IMG/VR virus record: IMGVR_UViG_2731957841_000003
Reading direction: 5' to 3' (one strand)
Source: a virus
Taxonomy: Duplodnaviria; Heunggongvirae; Uroviricota; Caudoviricetes
Length of the DNA stretch: 29,158 nucleotides
Position 1 is the first letter of the stretch. The number at the start of each line of letters is the position of its first letter. Below, piece by piece: positions 5,592 to 22,176 of the stretch. The notes beneath the pieces are model-generated. The model was not told where the DNA came from. It was given only the letters and a program-made list of their open reading frames with translations, and did not search any database. A program made the translations under genes and the position numbers.

Positions 5592-8500
5592 TTAACATTC
5601 CCCCATCACGTCGCATATTTAACAGATTGCCCTGCACCCGCTGATCAACCATCCCCATAAGTGCTTTTATTGCCTGAGGGCCAATCTCTCCATTCTGGCC
5701 GTCATTTTGAATAGTGATTTGGTATACAGGGGCATAGGTAATATCTCCGCCTCCATTACCACTTTTACTATTAATAGCTCTGACACCAAGAGAACCATCG
5801 GAAGTTCGTGTTAATGGCATAATGGCTTCCGGACCAGCCTCACCAAAAACACCAGCCCCTCTTGCAAAAGCAAAAAATTGCGGGGAGTCATAAATACCGT
5901 TCGAATACGTGTTCAATGACGGAGACTCATAAACACCGCCCTTTGCATTCGGAATAAATTTACTAATAGCACTCCCGATAGTTCCTAAAATCCCCCCAGA
6001 AGAACTGTTACTAATGCTGTCGAAAATCCCAGTAATTGAAGCCTTTAATGCTATTCGACTAAGATCCGAAATCACGGAAGTAGCGAAAGAACGAAAATTT
6101 GCCTTGCCTGTCGTGACAAAATCACCCAGCGCATCGGTCATTCCATCAAACATCTGAGTCGTGGTTGATTTTATCTGCTCACTGATATCCTTAGTGTCAT
6201 CCAGCCAGTTATTGAATCCCTGGGAGGCACCACTAACCCAGTCTCCTGCCTGAATATCGAGCTGCTCGTTTTTCTGTCTGACAATTTCTTTTTCTCGTTC
6301 CAGAGCATCATTCAGAGCCTGCATTTTCTCCTGAAAAACATGATTTGACATCCCACGGGATTTATCTGCATAGTCACGTTCAAGTTGCAGACGCTGATTG
6401 TTATATTCACGTTCAATCCGCAGTAATTCCTGCTGGCGTTGCTGATTTTTATCGCCAACCCCATAACCAGCAATCTGAATATCATACCCCTGTTGACGAT
6501 TATCAATCGAAGCCTGCAATGAATCACGCCATGCAGCTATTTCGGCGGATTCCTTGATTAGCCTGTTATTTTTTTCAATCGCAACATTTTTCTCCATCAA
6601 CGCGGTTATTTCTTCCCGGTGTAAGAGAAGCGATTTCTGATCCTGGGTTAATTTCGATGACGGTCGTGACTCCAGGTCGGCAATCTGCTGACGCCACTTA
6701 ACCAGTTCCTGTTCAGAGGAACTTAATTTAACGGTTAATTCAGTTTGTGAACTTAGTAACGCATTCTGTTGATTCAGATGATCAATCATTCGTTGGGCAG
6801 CATCATCCGAATAACCTTTCGCCTTTGGTTGCTTTGGATCTTTATAACGTTCATTTATTTGAGCGATAAAATTATTATATTCTTCCTTTGAATACTGACT
6901 CTTTAGCTTTTCCAGTTTTGCAAGTTCACTAGCTCTCTGCTGCTCCCGGGTCTGATATTGTTTTGAAAAGGCATCTGCTCTCTGTCTGAGTTCAATTCCT
7001 TCCTGTTGTCGCTTGTTGTAATCGTTTATTGATGAATTTAGGACGTCCTGAGCAATTTTTTCTGCTTGAAGTACGCCCAATTGCTGCTTTAATCGTGCCA
7101 GCCTTTTATTTTGAGCTCCGCCATCTCCAATGCCACCTAACCCGAAAACTCCGGGTCGGGTATTTTTTCTATTTCATCAATTTGACGGAGAACATCTGAG
7201 ATTTTTTGATCAAGGGAGGCCTCACGGCCAATATCCAGCATGGAATCCCATGCCCATTTTGCGGAGTCTGCGACAGCTTTCCATGCAGTCTCAAGATAAC
7301 CAAGATTTTCTTTAATCTGGTTGGTGCGCTGGATCATTGAGGATGAGTATGCTTCTGTCGCAATGCGGGCGGCCTCCTGCTGGTTCCCTTCATCCTGTAG
7401 CGCCTTAATCTGGTTATAAGTCGCAATTGTCAGAAAATGGTACTGATCATTAAGTTTTGATATGGCACTGACAGGATCCTTTGCAATTTCATTGAAGTCA
7501 TTAACCAGTTGTTCGGTTGATATTCCTGTTACTTCGCTCGTTTTTACTATCGCTGTCGTCACTTGCTCCAGCGAACTGCTCGCTACCTTTCCCGAACGCA
7601 CAAGCTGGTTTAATACTGCCGCCGCAGCGCCAGTTGTCGAATCAGCCGCATTCCCGGCACGTTGAGCTATATCGGCCAATTGCCCGCTGGTTGTCCCCAA
7701 CTGATTTCCGGTAAGAATAAGAGATTTATTAAATTCGTCCTGCTCCTGAGAGCCTTTATAGTAAGCCAGCCCTAAGACGCCAACGGCTGCTGCGGCCAGG
7801 GTAAAAGGATTAATTAATCCCAGCACATAAGAACCAACACCTTTGATCGCCGGGCCAATCCCACCGAACATATCTTTTAGCTGGCCGCCCTGCTGCATTA
7901 ACACCATAAAAGGCGACTGACCAGTGGACAACCCAACAACAATATCCGTCATTTGTGCAGGCAACATGCGCATAGCAAAAGCCGTTTGTTTTGCCGACAT
8001 TCCGGTTTTGCTTAATTGAGATTGAGTAACCTCAAGCTCACTCCGCATAGCACGAAGTTTTCCAGAAAGTTCCTCATACATTTCAGGAGAGAGCATCCCC
8101 TTAGCTTTTGCTTCATTGAGCTGTTTCTGTTGTTCTACCAGACGATTAAAAGCAGTTCCGACAGGGTCAAGTTGAGCAATCAGACGTTGCAAAGCAGCAA
8201 CCTGTTCATCATGCGCTTTTGCTGCTTCTCGCTCTGCCTGAGCCTCTCCGGTAAGCTCTCGCCGTGTTTCCTGTATTTTTCGGCTATAATTCTCAAACTG
8301 AGAACCATTTATTTTCCCGGATGCAAACGCAGCATTAAGTTCATCCTGCTGTTGTTCAAGATTTCTTAGCGCCGCAGCCAGAGGGTCGATCTTGTCCAGC
8401 ATTCTTTGAAAGGCCTGAGCCTGCGCTTCCTGCTGGGCGGCAGCAAGTTTTCCGGCCTTCTCGGCTTCTCTCTGCGCTTGCGCAACCCCGCTCAATTCCT

Positions 8501-8979: not shown

Positions 8980-9578
8980 CTACACACACTGATCCTGAAA
9001 ATACTGGTCATCCAGTGCAAAGATCACTGCTTCAAACTCATCGCGCTCAATCAATACCGGATGAGTGGCTAAATATTCATTTATCTCTGTCAGAGATAAA
9101 GGCAAAGGCACCCCGGTCATTCCAGCATAACGTCGGGCACGGGATATTACCGAATAGGCGTACAACAATTCCTTAAGCACCGGGTCTATTTCTGGTTCCG
9201 GTATCGGTGGCAACCTGAGTTTTTCTCGCTTCCATCTTGCCTTTTCCCCCCTTTCTCCCCCGAACTCCGATAACCACCGCTGGGCGGCTATGGCTTTTTT
9301 ATCGTATCCTGCTTCTGCTGCTCTTTACCCTGGGCGATGCTGGCTGCTTCTGCAAGGATCTGCCAGTACAACTCTGGATTCTGCTTAAGCAGCGCGATCC
9401 CTCGTTCTGGCGTATATTCCAGTGCAACCTCAGCACCATTAACCAGTTCACCAACCCCTTTCCAGTCTTTCAGCAGATAACGAGCAGCATTATCAATGAG
9501 TAAATCATCAACAGAATCTACCTCGGAAACCTTTGAAATATCAAACTCCTTCGTTCCGACGTGCAAACTGGCATCCAT
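8980..9578 (-). CDS. GT: Tail assembly chaperone GT-like fusion produced by a predicted -1 ribosomal frameshift at 9294..9300
   Basis: The -1 frame is open from 9324 down to 8980 and joins the G frame at the heptamer (mRNA ...AUA AAA AAG CCA UAG; -1 reading gives KKAIAAQRWLSEFGG...PPIPEPEIDPV...). Conserved G/GT arrangement upstream of tape measure genes. Confidence 0.55.
9288..9578 (-). CDS. G: Tail assembly chaperone, G-like (0-frame product)
   Basis: 96-aa ORF immediately upstream of the tape measure gene; ends ...DTIKKP* with an A_AAA_AAG slippery heptamer in frame 6 codons before the stop. Confidence 0.6.
   Translation of the reverse strand: MDASLHVGTKEFDISKVSEVDSVDDLLIDNAARYLLKDWKGVGELVNGAEVALEYTPERGIALLKQNPELYWQILAEAASIAQGKEQQKQDTIKKP
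9294..9300 (-). other. Putative programmed -1 frameshift slippery heptamer A_AAA_AAG
   Basis: Plus-strand CTTTTTT is AAAAAAG on the minus strand, in the X_XXY_YYZ register of the G ORF, with the -1 frame open downstream. Confidence 0.55.
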
Positions 9579-9598
9579 TTTCTCAATGTGACGACGGA

Positions 9599-9796
9599 TT
9601 AATGCATTACGGGAGCGATACTGATCGTTATCGCTGCTTCACCTTTCGCTCTGCCCTTACGGATGGCCGCATAAAAATCTGTCATTGCTTCCCGATTTTC
9701 TTTCAGTCGGTTCAGATCAACATCCAGAACGTCAGCGATTTGTTGTGCAGTCATCCGGCACGCTGCCAGAGACTCGACTTTCGAATACGGAATCAT
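9599..9796 (-). CDS. Small hypothetical protein with HTH-like segment (possible remnant of a packaging/terminase small subunit gene)
   Basis: 65-aa ORF (…MTAQQIADVLDVDLNRLKE…). Its 5' end overlaps the 3' end of the upstream ORF by 65 nt. Weak call. Confidence 0.25.
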   Translation of the reverse strand: MIPYSKVESLAACRMTAQQIADVLDVDLNRLKENREAMTDFYAAIRKGRAKGEAAITISIAPVMH

Positions 9797-10664
9797 TTGT
9801 CACCCCCATTGATATGCAGGGTGTCTTCTTCCTGTATTTTTCGTGAAGGATTTTTACTGCAGCGTTGTTCCAGGTGACCTGATGGTGAATGCGTTTATGG
9901 CTGGCACCCATCAGTGAAATTTTTACGCACGACGGCGCATACATGACGGAGTAAAAACTTTTAACGTAGGTTCCGGAATCCAGATACAGCTCGGTCATTC
10001 CGCCGCTGTTTTTCTGCGTCTGTTTCTGCCCTAACTGGACAGCACCGATCGTCATAAACAATTCACCACAGCGACCGAGATTCGTGTACGTATTCACATC
10101 CTCGTTAATGCGCCCCATGAATGAGAACGGTCGATCAACCGAACAGATAAAGCTGTTCATTGCCTTGCGTTTCACCCACGAAGCATGGCCGCCATTGTCA
10201 CCAAGAAAATCCCCGCCCTGCGACATAGCGATGGAAAGAGCAGGTATTGATTCGTAGTACGCCAGCATTTCAGAAAGGATCGCATCCAGTTTCCTTATCG
10301 GAAAATAGGCCTGGTCATAGTTGCGATCCACCCGAAACTGGAACTCGTGATAATCATCATCGAGCTGAATGAAGTATTTACACCCGACCAGTTTTGCCAG
10401 GTCGAAACAGGCATTACGGGCGTAAAAAATTGAGCGGCGGTCACAGAAATTATCGGCTTCGTCAAAACGACTGGCGATATCGGTTTTGGAAAACACCAGC
10501 ACCTGTTCACCAAATTCAGCCATGTACTGATGCCGTGTCTTATCTTCATCATCAACAACGATAAAAATTTTCCCGGTATAGCCAGCACGACGCAACGTCC
10601 GGTAAGTCAGAACTTTGTCTGGTCGCCCGTGAGTCAGAATAAAGGCGCAAAAATCATCACGCAT
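9732..10664 (-). CDS. Hypothetical protein, unknown function (possible GT-A-like fold: ...IFIVVDDED... and ...QLDDDY...)
   Basis: ORF listed as 317 aa; likely start is the ATG at 10664 (MRDDFCAF...) preceded by GGAGGAGGAGG, 2 nt after the ParB-like stop. No motif secure enough for a functional call. Confidence 0.5.
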   Translation of the reverse strand: MRDDFCAFILTHGRPDKVLTYRTLRRAGYTGKIFIVVDDEDKTRHQYMAEFGEQVLVFSKTDIASRFDEADNFCDRRSIFYARNACFDLAKLVGCKYFIQLDDDYHEFQFRVDRNYDQAYFPIRKLDAILSEMLAYYESIPALSIAMSQGGDFLGDNGGHASWVKRKAMNSFICSVDRPFSFMGRINEDVNTYTNLGRCGELFMTIGAVQLGQKQTQKNSGGMTELYLDSGTYVKSFYSVMYAPSCVKISLMGASHKRIHHQVTWNNAAVKILHEKYRKKTPCISMGVTNDSVFESRVSGSVPDDCTTNR

Positions 10665-11448
10665 ATTCCTCCTCCTCACCACCATGCATGATCTCCACCA
10701 TGCGCTGCGTCATCCGGACAAATCCATTTTCAATAGCCTGCTGATAATCAATGATCACCAGCGCCGACTCCTCGAAAAAACACTGAATTTCAGCGGGGGC
10801 GTGAGCGTAATAGTCCGCAATTCTGCTGAAATTAAACACCGTGTGACGTTCTGCCGCACACAGGAGGAATTTCTCAATATCAGGCTCAAGGGACGCCGAA
10901 CGTATCCGGCTGATCAGCTCCTGAGTTTTCGTATCGTCGTACAGTTCACTGATATCCGGTTTACCGCCCGACGGCTCATAAACAGGCGTATCAATTTTCG
11001 TCGTATACGGCTCCTCCTCATTTCCTGTACCGGGCAAAACATCCGTCAACAGTTCATCAATTTCTGTCGGGATGAAGCCTGTCAGGGAGACATCAAAATC
11101 AGCATTGATTAGGTCCGACAGCTCCATCCGCAACAGATCTTCATCCCAGCCAGCATTCATCGGCAGGCGATTATCTGCCAGGCGGTACGCCTTTTTCTGC
11201 TCATCCGTCAGGCCAGACAGAACAATGACCGGAACAGAATCCATTTTGAGCATTTCAGCCGCCATAACACGACCGTGACCCGCAATAATTTCGCCCTTTT
11301 CGTCAATCAGCACCGGATTAGTCCAGCCGAATTGCTTAATACTTTCTACCAGTTGTGCCACCTGCTCAGGGCTGTGCGTCCTGGCGTTGTGCGCATACGG
11401 TGACAATTCTTGTAATGGGCGATAGACTATCTTTAATTTCTCGCTCAT
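10657..11448 (-). CDS. ParB-like nuclease domain protein (ParB/Srx N-terminal domain)
   Basis: N-terminus ...LQELSPYAHNARTHSPEQVAQLVESIKQFGWTNPVLIDEKGEIIAGHGRVMAA... fits the ParB N-terminal domain signature; acidic C-terminus. Confidence 0.7.
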   Translation of the reverse strand: MSEKLKIVYRPLQELSPYAHNARTHSPEQVAQLVESIKQFGWTNPVLIDEKGEIIAGHGRVMAAEMLKMDSVPVIVLSGLTDEQKKAYRLADNRLPMNAGWDEDLLRMELSDLINADFDVSLTGFIPTEIDELLTDVLPGTGNEEEPYTTKIDTPVYEPSGGKPDISELYDDTKTQELISRIRSASLEPDIEKFLLCAAERHTVFNFSRIADYYAHAPAEIQCFFEESALVIIDYQQAIENGFVRMTQRMVEIMHGGEEEEYA

Positions 11449-11585
11449 ACAGCCTTGCTTTATGAATAAAACGCACCCCAGCAGCCAGTGCTACTGGGGG
11501 CGGAGGTGTTGCTGGTAAAGTTAGGTATTGGATCAATGAGTGAGTCAACATAATATTAAACTCACAATTATAAATCAGCCATATA

Positions 11586-13043
11586 TTAGGAGCGCCAAAA
11601 AAAACCTGAAAACAATATAATAACAGGATAAATTTCAAGGCGACCAAGAATCATAGCTATGCACATTAAATATTTTGCAATGTCATTAAGCACTCCGAAT
11701 GACGATGCAGTAGCCCCAAAACCTAATCCCATATTATTAATACATGCAGCCACTGTTGCAAATGATGTAAGAAAATCATATCCCATACCATTTAACACCA
11801 GTATAAAAAACACCGTAAAGAGAGTATAAAGAAAAAAGAAACTCCATACAGACCTCATTACACGATCTGTAACTATCTTCCCTCCTACATTTACACTCAA
11901 CAACGCTCTGGGATGAGAAAGCTGATTTATCTCGTGTTTGCTTTGTTTGAAAAGTATAAGAAATCGAAGTGACTTAATTCCACCACAAGTTGAACCTATA
12001 CATCCCCCAAAGAAACTTGACAACAGCAAAAACACTATCGTGTGCGTGGGCCAGCTTGCATAATCCTGCGTAGCTAAACCATTATCAGTGAGCATGGAGC
12101 TGGCAAGAAAAAACGAATGAATAAAACTTCCATGCAAGTCATACATACCTATATGCCAGACCTGGAAAGAGGTAACAATGATCACCCCTAAGGCTATTAA
12201 CAGAAAGAAACGAAGTTCAATATCTCTGATTAAAGGTTTTATCGTTTTCCTGCTAATAACAATATACCAAAGAGTGAAGTTGAAAGCCGATAGCAGGGAA
12301 AAAGAACCAGCCACCAGCTCAACCAAATAGTTATTAAAATATCCGATACTCTCGCTATGAGTTGAGAAACCACCAAGCGAAACTGTGGAAATCCCGTGAC
12401 AAATAGCATCAAACAAAGGCATTCCTGCAAGTCTATAACAGACAATACAAGCAATACCTAATAAAGAATAAGTTATCCACAGTGTCCGTGACGTATCGGC
12501 CAGGCGGGGAGTGAGTTTGTCATCCTTAAATGGCCCCGGCATTTCTGACTGATAAAGCTTTGCACCACCAATACCCAATAATGGCAATACAGCAACCGCC
12601 AGAACAATAACTCCTAAACCACCTATAAAATTTAACTGTGACCGATAGTACAAATATGCCCGAGGTAATGAACTAACATCATCAATTACAGTTGCTCCTG
12701 TTGTTGTTATTCCAGAAATCCCTTCAAACAGAGCATCAATGAACGTTAAATTAAGTTCTGAGTCAATCCATAAAGGGAATGCACTAATAACAGAAAACAA
12801 AATCCAAAACATTACAATTATAATAAACCCATCACGGGTACGTAATTGAATGCCAGATTTCTTAGTTGTATACCACGCTCCGCCACCAATACAAAAAAAT
12901 ATAACGAAAGTTATAAAGAAAACGAACAGGCTTTTTTCTTTATAAAACAATGCTACAACCATTGGTGGCAACATTGAAAGACTATAGAGCCAAACCAGGA
13001 ACCCACACATATGAGTAACAACTCTTACATGAGATGTATTCAT
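11586..13043 (-). CDS. trkG: Potassium uptake protein TrkG (Trk system membrane subunit), AT-rich prophage cargo
   Basis: 485 aa from MNTSHVRVVTHMCGFLVWLYSL...; polytopic hydrophobic protein; markedly AT-rich relative to flanking phage genes. K-12 Rac carries trkG (established). Confidence 0.9.
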   Translation of the reverse strand: MNTSHVRVVTHMCGFLVWLYSLSMLPPMVVALFYKEKSLFVFFITFVIFFCIGGGAWYTTKKSGIQLRTRDGFIIIVMFWILFSVISAFPLWIDSELNLTFIDALFEGISGITTTGATVIDDVSSLPRAYLYYRSQLNFIGGLGVIVLAVAVLPLLGIGGAKLYQSEMPGPFKDDKLTPRLADTSRTLWITYSLLGIACIVCYRLAGMPLFDAICHGISTVSLGGFSTHSESIGYFNNYLVELVAGSFSLLSAFNFTLWYIVISRKTIKPLIRDIELRFFLLIALGVIIVTSFQVWHIGMYDLHGSFIHSFFLASSMLTDNGLATQDYASWPTHTIVFLLLSSFFGGCIGSTCGGIKSLRFLILFKQSKHEINQLSHPRALLSVNVGGKIVTDRVMRSVWSFFFLYTLFTVFFILVLNGMGYDFLTSFATVAACINNMGLGFGATASSFGVLNDIAKYLMCIAMILGRLEIYPVIILFSGFFWRS

Positions 13044-13180
13044 ATCTAAATATTCTTTCAATTATAACCACCTTGCTGCAATATTATGATTATACTGTAT
13101 AAAATTTAACTCCTCTTAGATCTTACTTCACTGTTCCTTATGAAACAATCATCAAAATGAATCATATTGTAGTTAAGATT

Positions 13181-13645
13181 TTACTTTAAACACTGTTCGG
13201 TTATGTATTGCTGAGCACCTTCAAGTTGGGCCTGCATCATTACCAGTCGTTCCCGGAGGGTGAAATAATCCCGTTCAGCGGTGTCTGCCAGTCGGGGGGA
13301 GGCTGCATTATCCACGCCGGAGGCGGTGGTGGCTTCACGCACTGACTGACAGACTGCTTTGATGTGCAACCGACGACGACCAGCGGCAACATCATCACGC
13401 AGAGCATCATTTTCAGCTTTCGCATCAGCTAACTCCTTCGTGTATTTTGCATCGAGCGCAGCAACATCACGCTGACGCATCTGCATGTCAGTAATTGCCG
13501 CGTTCGCCAGCTTCAGTTCTCTGGCATTTTTGTCGCGCTGCTCTTTGTAGGCGGTGGCGTTATCACGGTAATGATTAACAGCCCATGACAGGCAGACGAT
13601 GATGCAGATAACCAGAGCATAAATAATCGCGGCGACTCTGCTCAC
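13181..13645 (-). CDS. Rz: Spanin inner-membrane subunit Rz (GTG start overlapping endolysin stop)
   Basis: (V/M)[29 protein letters not shown]... closely matches lambda Rz by recollection; GTGA start/stop overlap with the endolysin gene. Confidence 0.8.
13240..13425 (-). CDS. Rz1: Spanin outer-membrane lipoprotein Rz1, embedded in the +1 frame of Rz
   Basis: 61-aa [27 protein letters not shown]...PPPPP...; lipobox LVVVGC and proline-rich region; entirely inside Rz. Confidence 0.8.
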
Positions 13646-14175
13646 TGATCTATCCCCCAACAGGCTAATGCGCTTTCCTGGTCACGACGAATAACCTGTC
13701 CATAGCAGTTATTTGAACGTATGCGGCAATCGCGCCCACCATCTTTTATCCACCAGCGAATCGCCTCGCATGCACCCTTACGATCACCGGCATTCAGCCG
13801 CTTATAAAACGTCGACGGGAAACACTTACCGGGGCCAATGTTATAGGGACAAAATGACGCTATACCCGCTTTCTGTGGTTCGGTCAGTGGTACTTTAATA
13901 TTGCGCTCCACCCATGCCAGCGCCTTATCACGTTCAATAGCGTTAACCTGGTCGCATTTTTCCTTCGACAGCCTCATTCCCGGTATGACGGGCTTACCAT
14001 CCACCATTGTGGCACCACGACAGATGGTCCATATACCGGAACCATCGCGGTATGCCGTTGTGTGGTTACCTTCTTTTTCATCCAGAAACTGGTCGAGAAT
14101 ATCAGGCGCAGGCGCACCGACGGCAATCAGTGCCAGAACGGCAGCCGACAGGCCGTATCTGATTTTTGCGTTCAT
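13642..14175 (-). CDS. R: SAR endolysin (GH24 T4-lysozyme-like with N-terminal signal-anchor-release segment)
   Basis: 177-aa ORF with N-terminal hydrophobic [16 protein letters not shown] followed by ...[22 protein letters not shown]... lysozyme motif; sits in the lysis cassette. Confidence 0.85.
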
Positions 14176-14280
14176 GGATATTTATCAGGATTTATCGGTT
14201 TCTGAACCCTGGATATGTTTATCTGTCCCGGCCTGTTGAATCAGGCAAGGAATAGTTAAATACAATAGAGAGGATTGTTT

Positions 14281-14553
14281 ATGGACAATAGCACCATTTC
14301 TCTACAGGAGTTGCTCGACTGCATTTCCAAGCTTCGGGATGATGTAAATGCCCTTACTGTCGCATTTTCATATCTGGCATTCTCAATTCCCAAGGAACAA
14401 ATGCAACCAACACTGGCATCGCTCCAGCTTGAATCACTCAACCCCAAATGGTCCCAGCAACAACAAAATTCTTTCAAGTGGCTGGCGGTATTACTGGAAG
14501 AAAAATATGCTGGTGAAATTACCATTTCGGCGGAGTCTTCAGTGAACCAGTAA
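14281..14553 (+). CDS. Hypothetical 90-aa protein on the opposite strand inside the lysis cassette
   Basis: ATG at 14281 preceded by AGAGAGG; protein-like helical composition; its 3' end overlaps the 3' end of the DUF1327-like gene by 35 nt (convergent). Confidence 0.4.
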   Translation: MDNSTISLQELLDCISKLRDDVNALTVAFSYLAFSIPKEQMQPTLASLQLESLNPKWSQQQQNSFKWLAVLLEEKYAGEITISAESSVNQ

Positions 14554-17195: not shown

Positions 17196-17794
17196 TACGC
17201 AAACTCCAGCAGCTGCGCGGCCACATTTTCGACTTGTTCCGGAGAGGAAAATTTACGGAACAGAATCCAGTTCCACAGCACATTCAGAACAGATTTATAA
17301 ACCTGCTGAAACTCGGTTTCGTCCATATTCGCAAAAGCGATAGATTTTGCCCGACGCCCGCGGCTACCGTCCGGATAAAAATGTTCGGTGTAAAATCCAG
17401 CCTGAATGGTTACCCACTCGCGAAAAGCCTCAAACGACTTTAGCAATGCCGTATCCCGGGTTCTGCGTGTCGCAACTGTATTCAGATATTGCTCTGCGGC
17501 ATCACTCAGGGCTGGCGTGTGTTCCCGACCAACTGATTCGCACAAGTAATCCACGAAACCAGACAGCAGTTCTCGTTCGCGAGGTGTGATCGCCCCACCG
17601 ACCGGAGTCCAGTAATCGAATCCCAGTTGCAGGAGTTTGAAAAAACGCTTGTGGAATGCGTAGTTACGCACACGCTTAAAGTCTGCGTGTATCCACTCAC
17701 CTATTTTGATTTGATGCAGAAAATCGCAACTCTCCGGCGTCGCCGGGAGAAGTAAACCAGAAGAGGTTTGTTTGACCAGTTGTATATGCGCCAT
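17195..17794 (-). CDS. DUF1367-family lambdoid phage protein (YbcN/YdfU-like)
   Basis: 199-aa ORF; position upstream of DUF1364 and Q as in DLP12/Qin (recollection). Confidence 0.55.
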   Translation of the reverse strand: MAHIQLVKQTSSGLLLPATPESCDFLHQIKIGEWIHADFKRVRNYAFHKRFFKLLQLGFDYWTPVGGAITPRERELLSGFVDYLCESVGREHTPALSDAAEQYLNTVATRRTRDTALLKSFEAFREWVTIQAGFYTEHFYPDGSRGRRAKSIAFANMDETEFQQVYKSVLNVLWNWILFRKFSSPEQVENVAAQLLEFA

Positions 17795-18074
17795 TTCTCA
17801 ATCTCTCGATGGCGCAGCGCAGCAGATGCCAGTTGTTCAGGCTGACGAATAAAGTATAAATAAACTGGCTATGGTGTAAAGCCCCACATAGCATGAACAA
17901 ACACTACATATCAAATAGCTGGTACAAGGATAGAAATACGACACTTATTATTAAAAACGATTAGATAAATTACATTTTAATGTTATGCAAAAGTTCTTTT
18001 TTATCATAACATTTCAATAAAAGCATTACAGATGCAATCATCCCGTCATCATCAATTATTTAAGGTGGTTAAAC

Positions 18075-18161
18075 ATGGAAAATAACAAGTTCGCACATCT
18101 CGCTCCTTTTTTATCCGTAATCCTTTTCGCTTGTTGTTTTATATGGGCATTATTTTTATAA
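18075..18161 (+). CDS. 28-aa hydrophobic peptide (MENNKFAHLAPFLSVILFACCFIWALFL): possible small membrane protein or type I toxin-like peptide
   Basis: ATG preceded by AAGGTGG at 6-nt spacing; single predicted transmembrane helix; sits in an AT-rich intergenic stretch. Confidence 0.4.
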   Translation: MENNKFAHLAPFLSVILFACCFIWALFL

Positions 18162-18552
18162 AGTAGCCACATGATAAGTTGCTGGAATCATATTTCCCAC
18201 TCAAGTCATTAACATTTGATAAGATATATCTAAAAGGACGCCTTTACATTATTTATGCGTATATAATTTATTTATATACACAGTAAAGGTATCCTGGGAA
18301 AATATTTATCGTTAAAAAATACATCATAAATAATTAAGCTGAAATTTCAGAACACAACTAATACACACAATAAGGTTCAGTAACAGTAATCTATGTGGAC
18401 TACATCGAGATTTTTTGATTAAACTTTAATAACTTATTCCTAACACACAGAATGCATAAACTAAAAGTAAAACAAATAGTTATACGAAAAACAACCATAT
18501 TTATTCTATCTTCTCCTCTAATCAACATATCAATTATGTGTTTCATAACAGC

Positions 18553-18592
18553 TTGACATAACCCTCCAAAAGATGCATTTTTAATGCATGTT
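18553..18592 (+). promoter_or_regulatory. Putative promoter (-35 TTGACA at 18553..18558) with overlapping NsrR-type operator AAGATGCATTT-T-TAATGCATGTT (18570..18592)
   Basis: Perfect -35 hexamer; 11-1-11 inverted repeat with ATGCAT cores matching the NsrR consensus as I recall it; about 15 nt upstream of the SD of the yeaR-like gene. Confidence 0.55.
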
Positions 18593-18607
18593 TTGGAGGA
18601 GGTGGTT

Positions 18608-18946
18608 ATGACACACAAGAGAATTCCTAAAGATTGGGTAATCAAACGCTCAACTCCGTTCTTCACAAAAGAGAACGTACCTTCAGCGTTATTAACACAT
18701 CATAATACAGCAGCAGGTGTTTTTGGGCAGTTGTGCGTAATGGAAGGCACTGTAACATATTATGGTTTTACTGATGAGAATGCTACTGAACCGGAGATAA
18801 AAGTAGTCATTAATGCTGGCGCTTTTGCAACAAGCCCACCACAATACTGGCACCGTGTTGAACTAAGCGATGATGCTCAGTTTAATATTAACTTTTGGGT
18901 CGCTCCAGACTTCTCGGGCGAAAAAGTCTATAGCACCAAAAAATAG
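18608..18946 (+). CDS. YeaR-like DUF1971 protein (TehB-related)
   Basis: 112 aa from MTHKRIPKDWVIKRSTPFFTKENVPSALLTHH...; strong SD GGAGGAGGTGG; similar to E. coli YeaR as I recall it (...RSTPFWNKQTAPAG...); opposite strand to flanking phage genes. Confidence 0.7.
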   Translation: MTHKRIPKDWVIKRSTPFFTKENVPSALLTHHNTAAGVFGQLCVMEGTVTYYGFTDENATEPEIKVVINAGAFATSPPQYWHRVELSDDAQFNINFWVAPDFSGEKVYSTKK

Positions 18947-18975
18947 ATGATCATATTAAAAATGCTTTAACAGTC

Positions 18976-19012
18976 AGACCCGGCAGGGCTATCCCCGACG
19001 GGTCTCATTTTT
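18976..19012 (+). terminator. Candidate rho-independent terminator for the yeaR-like gene
   Basis: Stem agacccg/cgggtct (large loop) followed by CATTTTTG, 30 nt after the stop codon. Confidence 0.45.
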
Positions 19013-19566
19013 GTAAATATATTGGTTCTACATTGACAGGAGACTTCAACCATAAGAAGTAATCTGAATACTTGAGCAATAAATTTACTTAAGATTAATG
19101 AGCGCACCTTGCCGGACAAAGATAAACCAAGGTAACACCTTTTTTCTAGCCAGTATGTAATCAATCAGAAAGCCGCTCCATAAGAACAACAGCAAGACAA
19201 TAAATTGCCATTACAGCCGCAATAGCCAGCGCACATTTGAGAACCAGCACGACAACCCCCTGTATTAGACGCACACCAGTCCTGATAAATATGAGGCTGT
19301 ATCGTCAGTGATTCAATACAACTATTGGGTATAGTTTCTGTGATTTTATTCTGTAGAAATGGAACACAACAACCAGTCACCACCAGCACTTCCTTAAATG
19401 CTCTAAGTCAGAAACAAGCCAACATTTTAGTCCGCTTTGAGCGATCTGCAGACATTGCTAGCAGCCTTCTGTGTGAATTCTCAGGGAGCAGGTCGGCATA
19501 GCATCACGTTGAGGCTCTTACCCTACTTGTTCACACCAACCCTAACTCCACAGACTGATTCATAAA

Positions 19567-20568
19567 TTAGTAATCTGCGTGTTTCGCACTTTTCAGAAAT
19601 GCTTTCATATTTTCATTAGGTCGCTCAATTTCGAAGTTACTTCCATATAACTCTTGTAATTTTGGCCATAACTTACTTAATAACCCTCTCCTGCGATAAA
19701 ATGGATGTATCCAAACGGTAGATAGGTACGGAGAATTTGCATTTGAATTGTTTATTGTGACCAGCCCAACTAAACATTGTCGATAACCACTATTATCCAT
19801 TGATTGTATTTCTTCGACGAATGGATACGCGATTACATCAGTCCAACCATGATCGGTTGTATCCCATTGCATTCCGTCATGACATTCCTTCGACTGATAG
19901 CGGCGTAAAGCTACACACGCGAGCTTTTGCCAATCTGGAGAATTAATTGTGATCTCTTCATCGTATGACGCGCCTATTGGAGCGGGTATTGGTCTGATTA
20001 ATCCAGCATGGCATTCATCATAGAACTTCATGTTTCCCTCAGAAACGTTGTGTACGTTGGGTTGCTCCATGTGTGCGCCATTCAAAAATAGCTCTGATAG
20101 TAGTGTATCTACACTGTAATCTTTATTGATTATTGTCGGCTTAGAGTTTTTCTTATTAAGGCCGCGAGTAACGATTTTTTGATCAATGTTAACAACATGG
20201 AATAATCCGTCGGGGAGGCTAGCGAACCACGATGGGGCATCGGACCAGAATAGCATGCCTTTTGTACTTCTTAAGAGTTTAATTAAGTTAATACAAGCTT
20301 CTTCACTAGTCTTGCCGTTGATGCGAAGTATGTTAGGACTAAAGTAATATTCATCCATATCAGGGAATGCAGCTTCGCAAAACTCCTGTACATAATTTAG
20401 CACCTGGATTCTACAGAGATCATCATAGCTGGTAATAACTAAGGGGGTATCTTCATTACTATTATGATTATCAATAATGCAATCTATAGCGAGACTTACT
20501 GCTTTGCGTATCACTTCAGTTGAATCTAACGACTCTAAAAATTTTGTCTTTCGTGTGCGAATATCCAT
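19567..20568 (-). CDS. Hypothetical 333-aa protein with C-terminal GNAT-like acetyltransferase motif (second gene of AT-rich cargo cassette)
   Basis: C-terminal ...LSTVWIHPFYRRRGLLSKLWPKLQEL... resembles GNAT motif A (beta4-alpha3, R-x-x-G); N-terminal ~250 aa unassigned; AT-rich codon usage; 15-bp gap to upstream gene. Confidence 0.5.
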   Translation of the reverse strand: MDIRTRKTKFLESLDSTEVIRKAVSLAIDCIIDNHNSNEDTPLVITSYDDLCRIQVLNYVQEFCEAAFPDMDEYYFSPNILRINGKTSEEACINLIKLLRSTKGMLFWSDAPSWFASLPDGLFHVVNIDQKIVTRGLNKKNSKPTIINKDYSVDTLLSELFLNGAHMEQPNVHNVSEGNMKFYDECHAGLIRPIPAPIGASYDEEITINSPDWQKLACVALRRYQSKECHDGMQWDTTDHGWTDVIAYPFVEEIQSMDNSGYRQCLVGLVTINNSNANSPYLSTVWIHPFYRRRGLLSKLWPKLQELYGSNFEIERPNENMKAFLKSAKHADY

Positions 20569-20583
20569 GTATGACCTGCGCTA

Positions 20584-21606
20584 TTAAAATTCATGAATGA
20601 ACGGTTTGTCATCTGGTTGCAAAATGGTGGTTTTATTCGTTGCTACATTTAAACTGTTGTAGAGCATAATTGCCAGGTTCGATGCATTTTCAATCAGCGT
20701 TTCAAGATCCTGGTCTGTAATCACTACGAGGTTCCCTTCTTTATCCTTTCCACCACGATGCACTAAGTGATTTCGATTGAGGGTTGCCAATTCAATAGCT
20801 TCTATCGGACAGTCTTTTTGTACTTTTATATCGAATGTAGCTTCATAGCGGTCGATTACCTTTTTAGTGCTATGCCAGCTTGCACTGATCAAGTGTTCCT
20901 TGATTGACCTGATTAGCTCTCCCCTAATTTTCTCGATGGGTTCACCCTTGAAAGGCAACGCAGCAATATCTTTGCTTACTTTAAATTCAGTCTTACCTTT
21001 TTCTATACAATTGGCTATGTAGACATCATCTTTCTCTATAGAATTAATGAATAGCTCAACATAAAGCGTTTCCAAAGCTGTAATAACATTCGTGTAGAGC
21101 AAACTAAGCAAGTGGTTTTTTTGCTGTTGTTCAGTTTTATCTTTTGCAAGTTTTTTTATTTTATCGATATTATCAATGAATTTTAAATACGGATTACCGG
21201 AAGACGTTACAGCGTCGTAGATATCATCATCGTACCAATCATCTATATTATTTGAGTTTCCAGACCAGTCAAAACATTGTGTTTGTAATTCATCTACTAA
21301 TTCCTCAATATACTCAGATTTAACATATTGACCGAAGATGGATTGTAGTTCTTCGCTCGCATCATACGGCCCGCCATATATGTAAGCATAGCCACCTTCT
21401 CTACTTTCATACGGACAAGCATTTGCCGGATCTTCAAAGTTTTCAAAGAACCAGTTTTTCATTACTTCGAGTTGATCTTTTTTGCTTATGTATTTTAAAG
21501 ATTTTAGTGGAACTTTCTTTCCATTAACCTCGAAAACAATTTTCACGATGTAACGCTCCCTTGTATCAATTGCGCAACTATTATACCACAGCGAAATACA
21601 GGGCAT
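20584..21606 (-). CDS. Hypothetical 340-aa protein with C-terminal R-x4-H (HEPN-like) motif (first gene of AT-rich cargo cassette)
   Basis: ORF listed as 363 aa; preferred start is the ATG at 21606 (MPCISLWYNS...) preceded by AAGGAGG. C-terminal ...ELATLNRNHLVHRGG... carries R-x4-H; strongly AT-rich. Confidence 0.5.
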   Translation of the reverse strand: MPCISLWYNSCAIDTRERYIVKIVFEVNGKKVPLKSLKYISKKDQLEVMKNWFFENFEDPANACPYESREGGYAYIYGGPYDASEELQSIFGQYVKSEYIEELVDELQTQCFDWSGNSNNIDDWYDDDIYDAVTSSGNPYLKFIDNIDKIKKLAKDKTEQQQKNHLLSLLYTNVITALETLYVELFINSIEKDDVYIANCIEKGKTEFKVSKDIAALPFKGEPIEKIRGELIRSIKEHLISASWHSTKKVIDRYEATFDIKVQKDCPIEAIELATLNRNHLVHRGGKDKEGNLVVITDQDLETLIENASNLAIMLYNSLNVATNKTTILQPDDKPFIHEF

Positions 21607-21744
21607 AACCTGCCTCCTTAAACTAACATACCATGAGCCAGCAATGTCCGCTATTGGCACAAAGCGGACAACCACGCTAGCTCTCCCCTGTGCCAGAAAA
21701 ATGTCAATTTACATATGAACTAATGCTCTTTGATCTAGTAACGT

Positions 21745-22176
21745 CTATAAATACCGAAGATTTCCTTGATAAAATGCCAGTACACGTTTCATAACTTCAC
21801 TCTTCCGGCACTCGCGACAGATTATGTTCTGACGCCTGTCATAGCGGCGTATTTCTCCGTCTGGTAATGACCAGATAAGGTCAGGATCAACCACAACCGT
21901 TTTTTTCACCTTTGCCCTGGATAGTTTTTTGCGGGCGTTTTTCCAATCCTTACGAGCCTGTTCAGACGGGAATAACCCATAGCCAGAGTTGTATACATCG
22001 CCACTGGCAACCAACTCTCTGGCAAGAATGCTCATCAGATATCTTGTCGCACCTGTCTTGGCCTCCAGTTGCCTTAACGTCTCGCGCCCACTCTGGCGTA
22101 CCAACTCAACAACCTGCTCCTTAATTTTTTCACGCTCTTCCTGTGTAAAAACTTTTGCCATAAGCGCCTCCGGCAA
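21745..22176 (-). CDS. Hypothetical basic 143-aa protein (nin-region-like position)
   Basis: ORF contiguous with the upstream gene (stop/start adjacent at 22176/22177); lysine/arginine-rich; no recognisable motif. Confidence 0.45.
   Translation of the reverse strand: MPEALMAKVFTQEEREKIKEQVVELVRQSGRETLRQLEAKTGATRYLMSILARELVASGDVYNSGYGLFPSEQARKDWKNARKKLSRAKVKKTVVVDPDLIWSLPDGEIRRYDRRQNIICRECRKSEVMKRVLAFYQGNLRYL

Follow-up and report, generated by a model that had tools for sequence, protein, structure and literature searches.

The TAGT family of glycosyltransferases was reportedly defined by Iyer et al. in 2013 (NAR). Characterised relatives act on DNA, and comprise the base-J glucosyltransferase together with phage enzymes that glycosylate hydroxymethyl-pyrimidines (PMC7968844); a further member of the family has been reported from phage T6, where it likely attaches the second glucose to glucosylated hydroxymethylcytosine (PMC13390438). 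ParB-like proteins, for their part, are already known to accompany DNA-modifying enzymes. In particular, a phage ParB is required, in a cognate-specific manner, for the action of a thymine dioxygenase on double-stranded DNA; that ParB comprises an N-terminal nucleotide-binding domain and a C-terminal domain, has no DNA-binding domain, and the commonest neighbours of such dioxygenases are glycosyltransferases (31%), ParBs (27%) and terminases (19%) (O'Toole et al., PNAS 2026, PMC13229309). Here we analyse IMG/VR record IMGVR_UViG_2731957841_000003, a 29,158-nucleotide stretch of DNA (its full length is referred to below as the window), in which a gene for a ParB-like protein and a gene for a TAGT-family glycosyltransferase lie side by side. 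Although both protein families are named in databases, the two genes constitute a widespread and uncharacterised two-gene phage module. The prophage that carries them here is a degraded Rac-type prophage of E. coli.

Three open reading frames (ORFs) occupy positions 9599-11448, all of them on the minus strand, which is the coding strand of every gene in this part of the window. The first to be transcribed encodes the ParB-like protein of 263 amino acids (aa; 10657-11448), the second a 310-aa protein (9732-10664), and the third a 65-aa protein (9599-9796) whose ORF overlaps the 3′ end of the 310-aa gene. An initial annotation of the region had described just these three ORFs, including the overlap. 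On comparative grounds all three are real genes, and their homologues number in the thousands in databases. Note that the longest ORF for the second gene is of 317 aa and begins with the ATG at 10685, whereas the start preferred by the Prokaryotic Genome Annotation Pipeline (PGAP), and likewise by the PHROG alignment, is the ATG at 10664; from this start, the gene overlaps the stop codon of the ParB gene by 8 nt, and the two genes are translationally coupled.

The initial annotation had guessed, very tentatively, that the acidic motifs of the 310-aa protein might belong to a nucleotide-sugar transferase, and this guess was borne out. The protein matches the Pfam family PF20691 TAGT (E 3.3e-35; 122.3 bits against a cut-off of 27.5; residues 15-229 of the 317-aa ORF) as well as phrog_842 (E 7e-104), and is named 'GREB1-related protein' by PGAP. 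It has a GT-A fold and an invariant DDD motif, which provides the DxD metal- and nucleotide-sugar-binding signature. Its best structural matches in BFVD are TAGT-domain phage proteins, and its top structural neighbours include protein glycosyltransferases and glycogenin. The alternative that it represents a fragment of a terminase or portal protein was rejected, as both profile and structure identify a TAGT-family GT-A enzyme.

The ParB-like protein matches PF02195 (E 1.2e-6; 28.9 bits against a cut-off of 26.3) and phrog_620 (E 1e-90). Residues 1 to about 135 form an N domain of the ParB/Srx nucleotide-binding (CTPase) type, and in a profile search of the PDB only residues 3-134 were aligned, with the nucleotide-binding domains of Noc and Spo0J (E 7e-13). 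Both motifs of the nucleotide pocket, GxxR and acidic-Asn, are present, with AGHGR paired in that alignment with GERR and ADN with EN. Across five distant orthologues G57, D92 and N93 do not vary; R60 does, being a threonine in phage NTR1. The hallmarks of a chromosome or plasmid partition ParB, namely a central helix-turn-helix (HTH) domain that binds parS, a C-terminal dimerisation domain and a ParA partner, are absent. The N domain is instead of the subtype that is found fused to DNA methyltransferases: it matches phrog_498, which comprises such fusions, with E 1e-50, and the N-terminal region of the PADLOC model MTase_II with E 2.5e-38. Beyond it lie a linker with an invariant Y..P.YEP motif and a helical domain (residues about 165-245). 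The C-terminal part of about 110 aa corresponds to no Pfam family and has no fold match in the PDB. (PGAP labels the intact gene, in relatives of this prophage, a C-terminally incomplete 258-bp pseudogene, 'ynaK', at 21556-21813 of locus L001 and 14159-14416 of locus L002, and so leaves about 0.5 kb unannotated. The proposal that the gene is a pseudogene was rejected, since nothing interrupts the 263-aa ORF and an intact prophage has the identical ORF; PGAP's label seems to be an artefact of annotation.)

The C-terminal region (residues 143-263; 10660-11022) is, judging from its distribution, a specific partner of TAGT, and we refer to it as the TAGT-partner domain; besides the YEP motif, its invariant residues include R59, H60, Y72, E84 and D92. 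In 191-kb Vibrio phages the ORF upstream of TAGT encodes only 139 aa, which match the C-terminal 120 or so residues of the ParB-like protein (149 bits) and contain no Pfam domain. A profile of the partner region recovered from a word-indexed database 1,467 proteins, the majority of them stand-alone and 125-150 aa long, and an exhaustive search of 1.84 billion proteins recovered 1,418 representatives of clusters formed at 50% identity; among the best 150 of these 1,418 the domain is always C-terminal, in proteins of either about 130-200 aa or about 240-310 aa. Every phage record found to contain the partner domain also carries TAGT (28 of 28).

Pairing is equally strict when viewed from the side of the enzyme. 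TAGT was found by tblastn in 36 of 50,697 phage records, at identities of about 27-48%; beyond Rac-like phages these include Lactobacillus gasseri phage phi jlb1, L. delbrueckii phages c5, phiLdb, Ld17 and LL-Ku, Nocardia phage NTR1, Porphyromonas phages, the 191-kb Vibrio phages and the haloarchaeal virus HHTV-2. In phi jlb1, c5, NTR1, a Porphyromonas phage and HHTV-2 the gene directly upstream overlaps TAGT by a few bases and encodes a full-length ParB orthologue; four of these orthologues are 32-42% identical to the ParB-like protein of the window, the C-terminal half included, and the Porphyromonas copy is more distant. We then used hidden Markov models of both proteins on a set of 89 loci (80 from IMG/VR plus the named phage and virus loci). 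Both genes are present in all 89, and in 88 the ParB homologue lies directly upstream of TAGT or overlaps it, on the same strand. In the single exception, locus L085, the ParB gene is located 3 kb upstream and TAGT is fused to an S-adenosylmethionine (SAM)-dependent methyltransferase. By this comparison the ParB–TAGT pair is a strictly co-occurring module, whose carriers comprise an archaeal virus as well as phages of five bacterial phyla.

The module occurs in two genomic settings. In temperate phages the gene for the terminase large subunit (TerL) begins 0-1.6 kb downstream of the pair. The TerL proteins concerned belong to at least four Pfam types (Terminase_6N, Terminase_3, TerL_ATPase/nuclease and GpA), besides divergent ones, and this indifference to terminase type argues that the pair has a conserved place at the start of the packaging operon, and argues against a link to one particular terminase. 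In large lytic phages, by contrast, the partner domain stands alone: in all seven metagenomic contigs examined with a stand-alone partner, its gene adjoins one or two TAGT genes within a replication module (DnaB, primase, PolA, clamp and RecA), as in the 191-kb Vibrio phages, and in three of the seven there are N6/N4 DNA methyltransferase genes nearby. Some loci hold further enzymes within the module (L085, 6001-7719; L094, 8001-11713; L101, 10001-13723; L099, 9072-12289), the arrangements seen being a fusion of TAGT to a class-I SAM methyltransferase, the gene order partner-CofD-nucleotidyltransferase-TAGT, and the gene order TAGT-partner-radical SAM-TAGT. These variants suggest elaborated glycan products, possibly phosphorylated or methylated.

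Taken as a whole, we read the locus as part of a decayed Rac prophage in which an intact gene pair would specify a ParB-assisted module for post-replicative glycosylation of DNA, and we assign this reading a probability of about 0.5. In intact phages the module would be transcribed with the late genes, immediately before the packaging genes. TAGT would be docked or activated by the C-terminal domain of the ParB-like protein, whose N domain would tether the complex to double-stranded phage DNA late in infection; the enzyme would then move sugar from a nucleotide-sugar donor to newly replicated phage DNA before it is packaged, where the sugar would presumably blunt the action of host nucleases. 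The scheme is drawn by analogy with the ParB-dependent thymine dioxygenases, and it would also parallel the fusions of ParB_N to methyltransferases. DNA is the favoured target because the characterised relatives of TAGT act on DNA, because the genes that surround the wider module are those for replication and DNA methylation, and because the N domain is of the subtype fused to DNA methyltransferases. The initial annotation had named a DNA-modification/accessory pair as one of its alternatives, and it is this alternative that the comparative context favours.

Several observations weigh against this reading. Foremost among them, no enzyme that would make the usual acceptor turned up. In the annotations of the window and of a related 38.7-kb phage there is no TET/JBP dioxygenase or hydroxymethylase (record annotations were searched, and no TET/JBP profile was applied); no source of hydroxymethyl-pyrimidine is among the 25 commonest of the 78 Pfam families matched by 139 neighbouring ORFs in 27 diverse loci; and neither a TET/JBP enzyme nor any other such source lies within 8-10 kb on either side in the seven lytic-phage contigs. 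These negative results imply that the acceptor is unconventional or else that the target is not DNA. In addition, the PDB profile search revealed in the ParB-like protein no HTH, no canonical C-terminal domain and no recognisable DNA-binding domain; the fold of the partner domain yields no clue to its function; no stable complex of ParB and enzyme could be trapped in the tested precedent (PMC13229309); and GREB1, a eukaryotic member of the TAGT family, O-GlcNAcylates a protein (PMC7968844). Rac remnants have, moreover, frequently shed the pair (K-12 is one case, and the many chimeras that retain ParB residues 1 to about 165 are others), which argues that it gives the host no obvious benefit.

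One way of accommodating the missing acceptor is that TAGT and its partner glycosylate DNA without prior hydroxymethylation, either directly on a canonical base or other DNA position, or by way of a first transfer to a Tyr/Thr motif of the partner. We regard this more specific proposal as doubtful. If true, it would imply a sugar-modified genome, or a glycosylated DNA-bound protein, made by a chemistry unlike the T-even, base-J and TET-dependent routes, and such a route would exist in about one sixth of complete E. coli genomes as well as in viruses of Bacteria and Archaea.

The serious rival to DNA glycosylation is glycosylation of protein, which we consider improbable on balance. Here TAGT would act on its own ParB partner, in the manner of glycogenin and at the invariant Y..P.YEP motif, with its Tyr and Thr residues, of the flexible linker, or on a terminase or virion protein, and the ParB-like protein would be a substrate or an adaptor rather than a DNA tether. 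The activity of GREB1, the protein glycosyltransferases and glycogenin among the structural neighbours of TAGT, and the failure of the annotation and Pfam surveys to reveal a source of hydroxylated DNA base all speak for it, as does the proximity of the pair to structural genes in temperate phages. Furthermore, in the model of the partner fragment, invariant residues Y6, P13 and Y15 fall within an N-terminal stretch of 20 residues modelled at lower confidence (block means 48 and 66), as might be expected of a docking or acceptor peptide. However, likeness in GT-A fold does not separate acceptors, the N domain is of the DNA-methyltransferase-fused subtype, and in large lytic phages the pair belongs to replication modules, at a distance from structural genes and, in three contigs, close to genes for DNA methyltransferases.

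A role as a packaging accessory appears less likely still. According to this alternative the ParB-like protein would be a nuclease or DNA-recognition helper of the terminase, comparable to the HNH proteins of cos phages, or a surrogate for the terminase small subunit (TerS), and TAGT would be secondary. The location 0-1.6 kb upstream of TerL in temperate phages is consistent with such a role, and there are two suggestive cases: in Nocardia phage NTR1 the pair directly precedes TerL and no TerS is annotated, and in Lactobacillus phage c5 the pair comprises the first genes after cos. However, the association is indifferent to terminase type, as expected of a shared position rather than of a partner; most loci have a separate TerS; the stand-alone partner and TAGT of replication modules are not beside a terminase; and structures of nuclease-type ParBs match the ParB-like protein weakly (E 5e-4).

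Finally, it is very improbable that the pair defends the lysogen by hyper-glycosylating the hydroxymethylcytosine-containing DNA of incoming T-even phages, or by otherwise attacking superinfecting phages, for although the reported T6 enzyme (PMC13390438), the previously raised idea that prophage glycosyltransferases modify invading DNA (bioRxiv 10.1101/2023.12.21.572611) and the adjacency of the pair to the moron gene trkG are in its favour, a strong terminator-like hairpin separates trkG from the ParB gene, the pair is in a late-gene position, it is also found in strictly lytic large phages and is frequently deleted from Rac remnants, and among the PADLOC models there is none that TAGT matches and only the N-terminal part of a methyltransferase model that the ParB-like protein matches. 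The hairpin (11476-11499, minus strand), which was identified solely by a terminator consensus scan, lies between the trkG stop codon and the ParB start and consists of 10 pairs, seven of them G-C, followed by a T-rich tail; on the same evidence, expression of the pair by read-through from trkG is disfavoured.

Comparison with intact relatives establishes what has happened to the prophage downstream of the pair. The region is 99-100% identical to Rac-type prophages, and 1,624 of 5,426 complete E. coli genomes match it, 851 of which carry at least 80% of window positions 9400-11700. As intact references we used the prophage of strain PF9285 (L001) and phage vB_EcoS-666R9, whose genome is of 38.7 kb. 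In such relatives the lysis genes and trkG are followed by the genes for ParB, TAGT, the small ORF, TerS (364 aa, Terminase_2), TerL, portal, minor head protein, a scaffold-like protein (DUF6651), major capsid, head-tail proteins, tail tube, tail chaperone and tape measure. In the prophage of the window the packaging and head genes have been removed by a single illegitimate deletion of about 10 kb, the size being 10,005 bp relative to vB_EcoS-666R9 and 10,781 bp relative to PF9285, which has an extra IS1. There is a single junction: window 9636-13644 corresponds to L001 20001-24009, and the window sequence that ends at 9639 corresponds to L001 sequence that ends at 9223. Read along transcription the junction is GCGAAAGGTGAAGC/AGCGATAACG, with the slash marking the join; the native small ORF reads GGTGAAGC/CGAG at the equivalent point and the native chaperone gene reads GGTGGTAAGC/AGCG. 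Comparison of the junction with these two native sequences places the crossover within a 4-bp microhomology at 9636-9639 (GCTT on the plus strand, AAGC along transcription). Abutting the junction, at 9614-9635, is an inverted repeat with a 7-bp stem and an 8-nt loop (AGCGATA-N8-TATCGCT). The genes lost are those for the small protein that precedes TerS (from codon 55 onwards), TerS, TerL, portal, minor head protein, scaffold, capsid, head-tail proteins and tail tube, together with the first 15 codons of the native 132-aa tail chaperone. The junction was not found in one piece in any of the 5,426 complete E. coli genomes, nor was a 33-mer spanning it present in contigs representing one genome per species.

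These findings confirm that the head module has been deleted, as the initial annotation had proposed, and supply the exact boundaries. Also upheld is its statement that genes for terminase, portal and capsid are missing between trkG and the tail chaperones. They are missing from the window altogether: when an intact relative's 11 proteins for packaging, head and tail tube served as tblastn queries, none gave a match in the window even at E<=1, and the possibility that head genes are located elsewhere in the window was rejected on that basis. What does not stand is the view that the ParB gene and the 310-aa gene occupy the slot of the terminase. In intact relatives both lie in their native position immediately upstream of TerS and TerL and are therefore not substitutes for terminase; the ParB ORF is identical to the L001 copy, TAGT differs from its own counterpart in the intact prophage by one residue, and the deletion, lying just downstream, has left both of these native phage genes untouched. 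The further suggestion that the region is a remnant of the packaging module accordingly holds for the 65-aa ORF and fails for the two larger genes. The deletion itself is ordinary prophage decay.

The 65-aa ORF is, from its similarity and its make-up, the sole packaging remnant among the three. It matches phrog_309, 'terminase small subunit' (E 8.6e-16), and no Pfam family. It is a chimera made of the first 54 codons of an 83-aa gene (69 aa according to PGAP) and 11 codons of the tail chaperone gene read out of frame, after which there is a stop. In intact relatives the 83-aa ORF is in frame with the 364-aa TerS, the two being separated by one stop codon and one codon (L001 18812-20161, minus strand; L096 22597-23904). 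This arrangement could be a split N-terminal domain of TerS, an old nonsense mutation or a case of read-through.

The same prophage type and gene order are found in the Rac prophage of K-12, whose ydaY is the same truncated tail chaperone and whose ynaK is the first 81 or so codons of the 263-aa ParB gene described here. The K-12 deletion starts 1.9 kb further upstream, and K-12 consequently has neither the C-terminus of ParB nor TAGT nor the small ORF, whereas the window retains all three; the window has other lesions, namely deletion of racR-kilR and frameshifts in tail gene K and the tape-measure gene. The two head-module deletions end within 2 nt of each other in the chaperone gene (in K-12 at about 5625-5635 of locus L097), beside the inverted repeat at 9614-9635. 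The shared endpoint may mark a site where the hairpin favours deletion; alternatively, a second deletion in a prophage resembling that of the window may have produced the K-12 form. In strain AR_0061 (L002 12241-12654) a third, independent deletion runs from within the tail-tube gene to the point in the small ORF that corresponds to window 9687; the head module has been lost from Rac remnants in at least three different ways. We also observed that many E. coli proteins in the databases consist of the first 58-63% or so of ParB (up to about 165 residues) joined to an unrelated phage protein, such as Lom, an NlpC/P60 tail protein, the C-terminal domain of TerL or a tail-fibre assembly protein (for example P0073, P0078, P0079, P0083, P0100, P0112 and P0114). 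The pattern suggests repeated, independent deletions from one spot inside the ParB gene.

Along the direction of transcription, the endolysin and Rz genes (13181-14175) and the moron gene trkG (11586-13061) flank the pair on its upstream side, and the 65-aa ORF is followed by a 96-aa ORF (9288-9578), a 77-aa ORF (8980-9213) and the tape-measure gene. The 96-aa ORF is the 5′-truncated, ydaY-like tail assembly chaperone and matches the C-terminal part of phrog_313 (E 7.7e-29); the 77-aa ORF is likewise a truncated tail chaperone. Relative to the intact prophage there are single-nucleotide deletions at about 4255, in tail gene K (a C40 peptidase), and at about 7162, which splits the tape-measure gene into two ORFs (8816-7137 and 7080-5584) of 559 and 498 aa. 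A second large deletion, at about 24457, joins ydaU to the interior of recE and has removed ydaT, ydaS, racR, ydaF, sieB, kilR and the 5′ part of recE, leaving the prophage without its repressor region. In this prophage the ParB and TAGT genes are probably carried silently, given the loss of the immunity region and the head genes, the frameshifts in two tail genes and the terminator-like hairpin between trkG and the pair. (A low-GC island at 17500-21700, with GC contents of 0.34-0.41, differs from the corresponding region of PF9285. It encodes a DUF1971 (TehB-like) protein at 18584-18946 on the plus strand, a 333-aa ORF with sub-threshold similarity to GNAT and a 363-aa ORF with a sub-threshold HEPN/RES N-terminal domain; neither of the latter two has a PADLOC match. 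The island may be a cargo or defence island.)

The deletion matters only as a clean example at nucleotide level, one that explains ynaK and ydaY of K-12. The significance of the locus lies rather in the module, most of which is carried by about 16% of complete E. coli genomes (851 of 5,426). The enzyme family is known only from the glycosylation of hydroxymethyl-pyrimidines, yet no route to that acceptor is seen in these phages; the possible outcomes are a new DNA modification, a new acceptor chemistry, or an extension of the role of ParB as an activator from dioxygenases to glycosyltransferases, and the module would be easy to test in E. coli, a standard host. The literature that we searched (on ynaK and Rac, on TAGT, GREB1 and ParB, and on HHTV-2, with Iyer et al. 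2013 lying outside it) contains no study of the ParB–TAGT pair. Nor did we find there any description of how strictly this TAGT clade is paired with a dedicated partner domain lacking a Pfam family and a PDB fold match, of the occurrence of that domain in two architectures (joined to ParB_N in temperate phages, on its own in large lytic ones), of the range of the module, which extends from E. coli prophages to a haloarchaeal virus, or of its missing source of hydroxymethyl-pyrimidine.

Among described systems, the 310-aa protein belongs with the TAGT/JGT/GREB1 family (PF20691, which includes the T6 enzyme), with which it shares a strong profile match, the GT-A fold and the invariant DDD motif. 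That family, however, is named for its linkage to TET/JBP (5mYOX) dioxygenases, the enzymes that create the acceptor hydroxyl, and here neither that linkage nor one to another source of hydroxymethyl-pyrimidine was found; what distinguishes the present clade is a conserved C-terminal extension of about 80 aa and a dedicated partner protein. The ParB-like protein has its counterpart in the fusions of ParB_N to DNA methyltransferases that occur in phages and plasmids (phrog_498 and PADLOC MTase_II). These combine the same N subtype with an enzyme that modifies DNA, and their genes often lie between terminase genes and those for lysis or replication, whereas in the module described here the enzyme is a separate polypeptide and a glycosyltransferase, apparently recruited through the extra C-terminal domain. 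The closest parallel for the pair as such is provided by the ParB-dependent thymine dioxygenases of the 5mYOX176/ParB176 type, in which, as here, a ParB-like protein without a DNA-binding domain is encoded beside its cognate enzyme and terminase genes are often neighbours. In that system the requirement for ParB has been demonstrated for a dioxygenase; in 88 of the 89 loci compared here, a ParB-like protein of the same kind adjoins a glycosyltransferase whose substrate would likewise be DNA.

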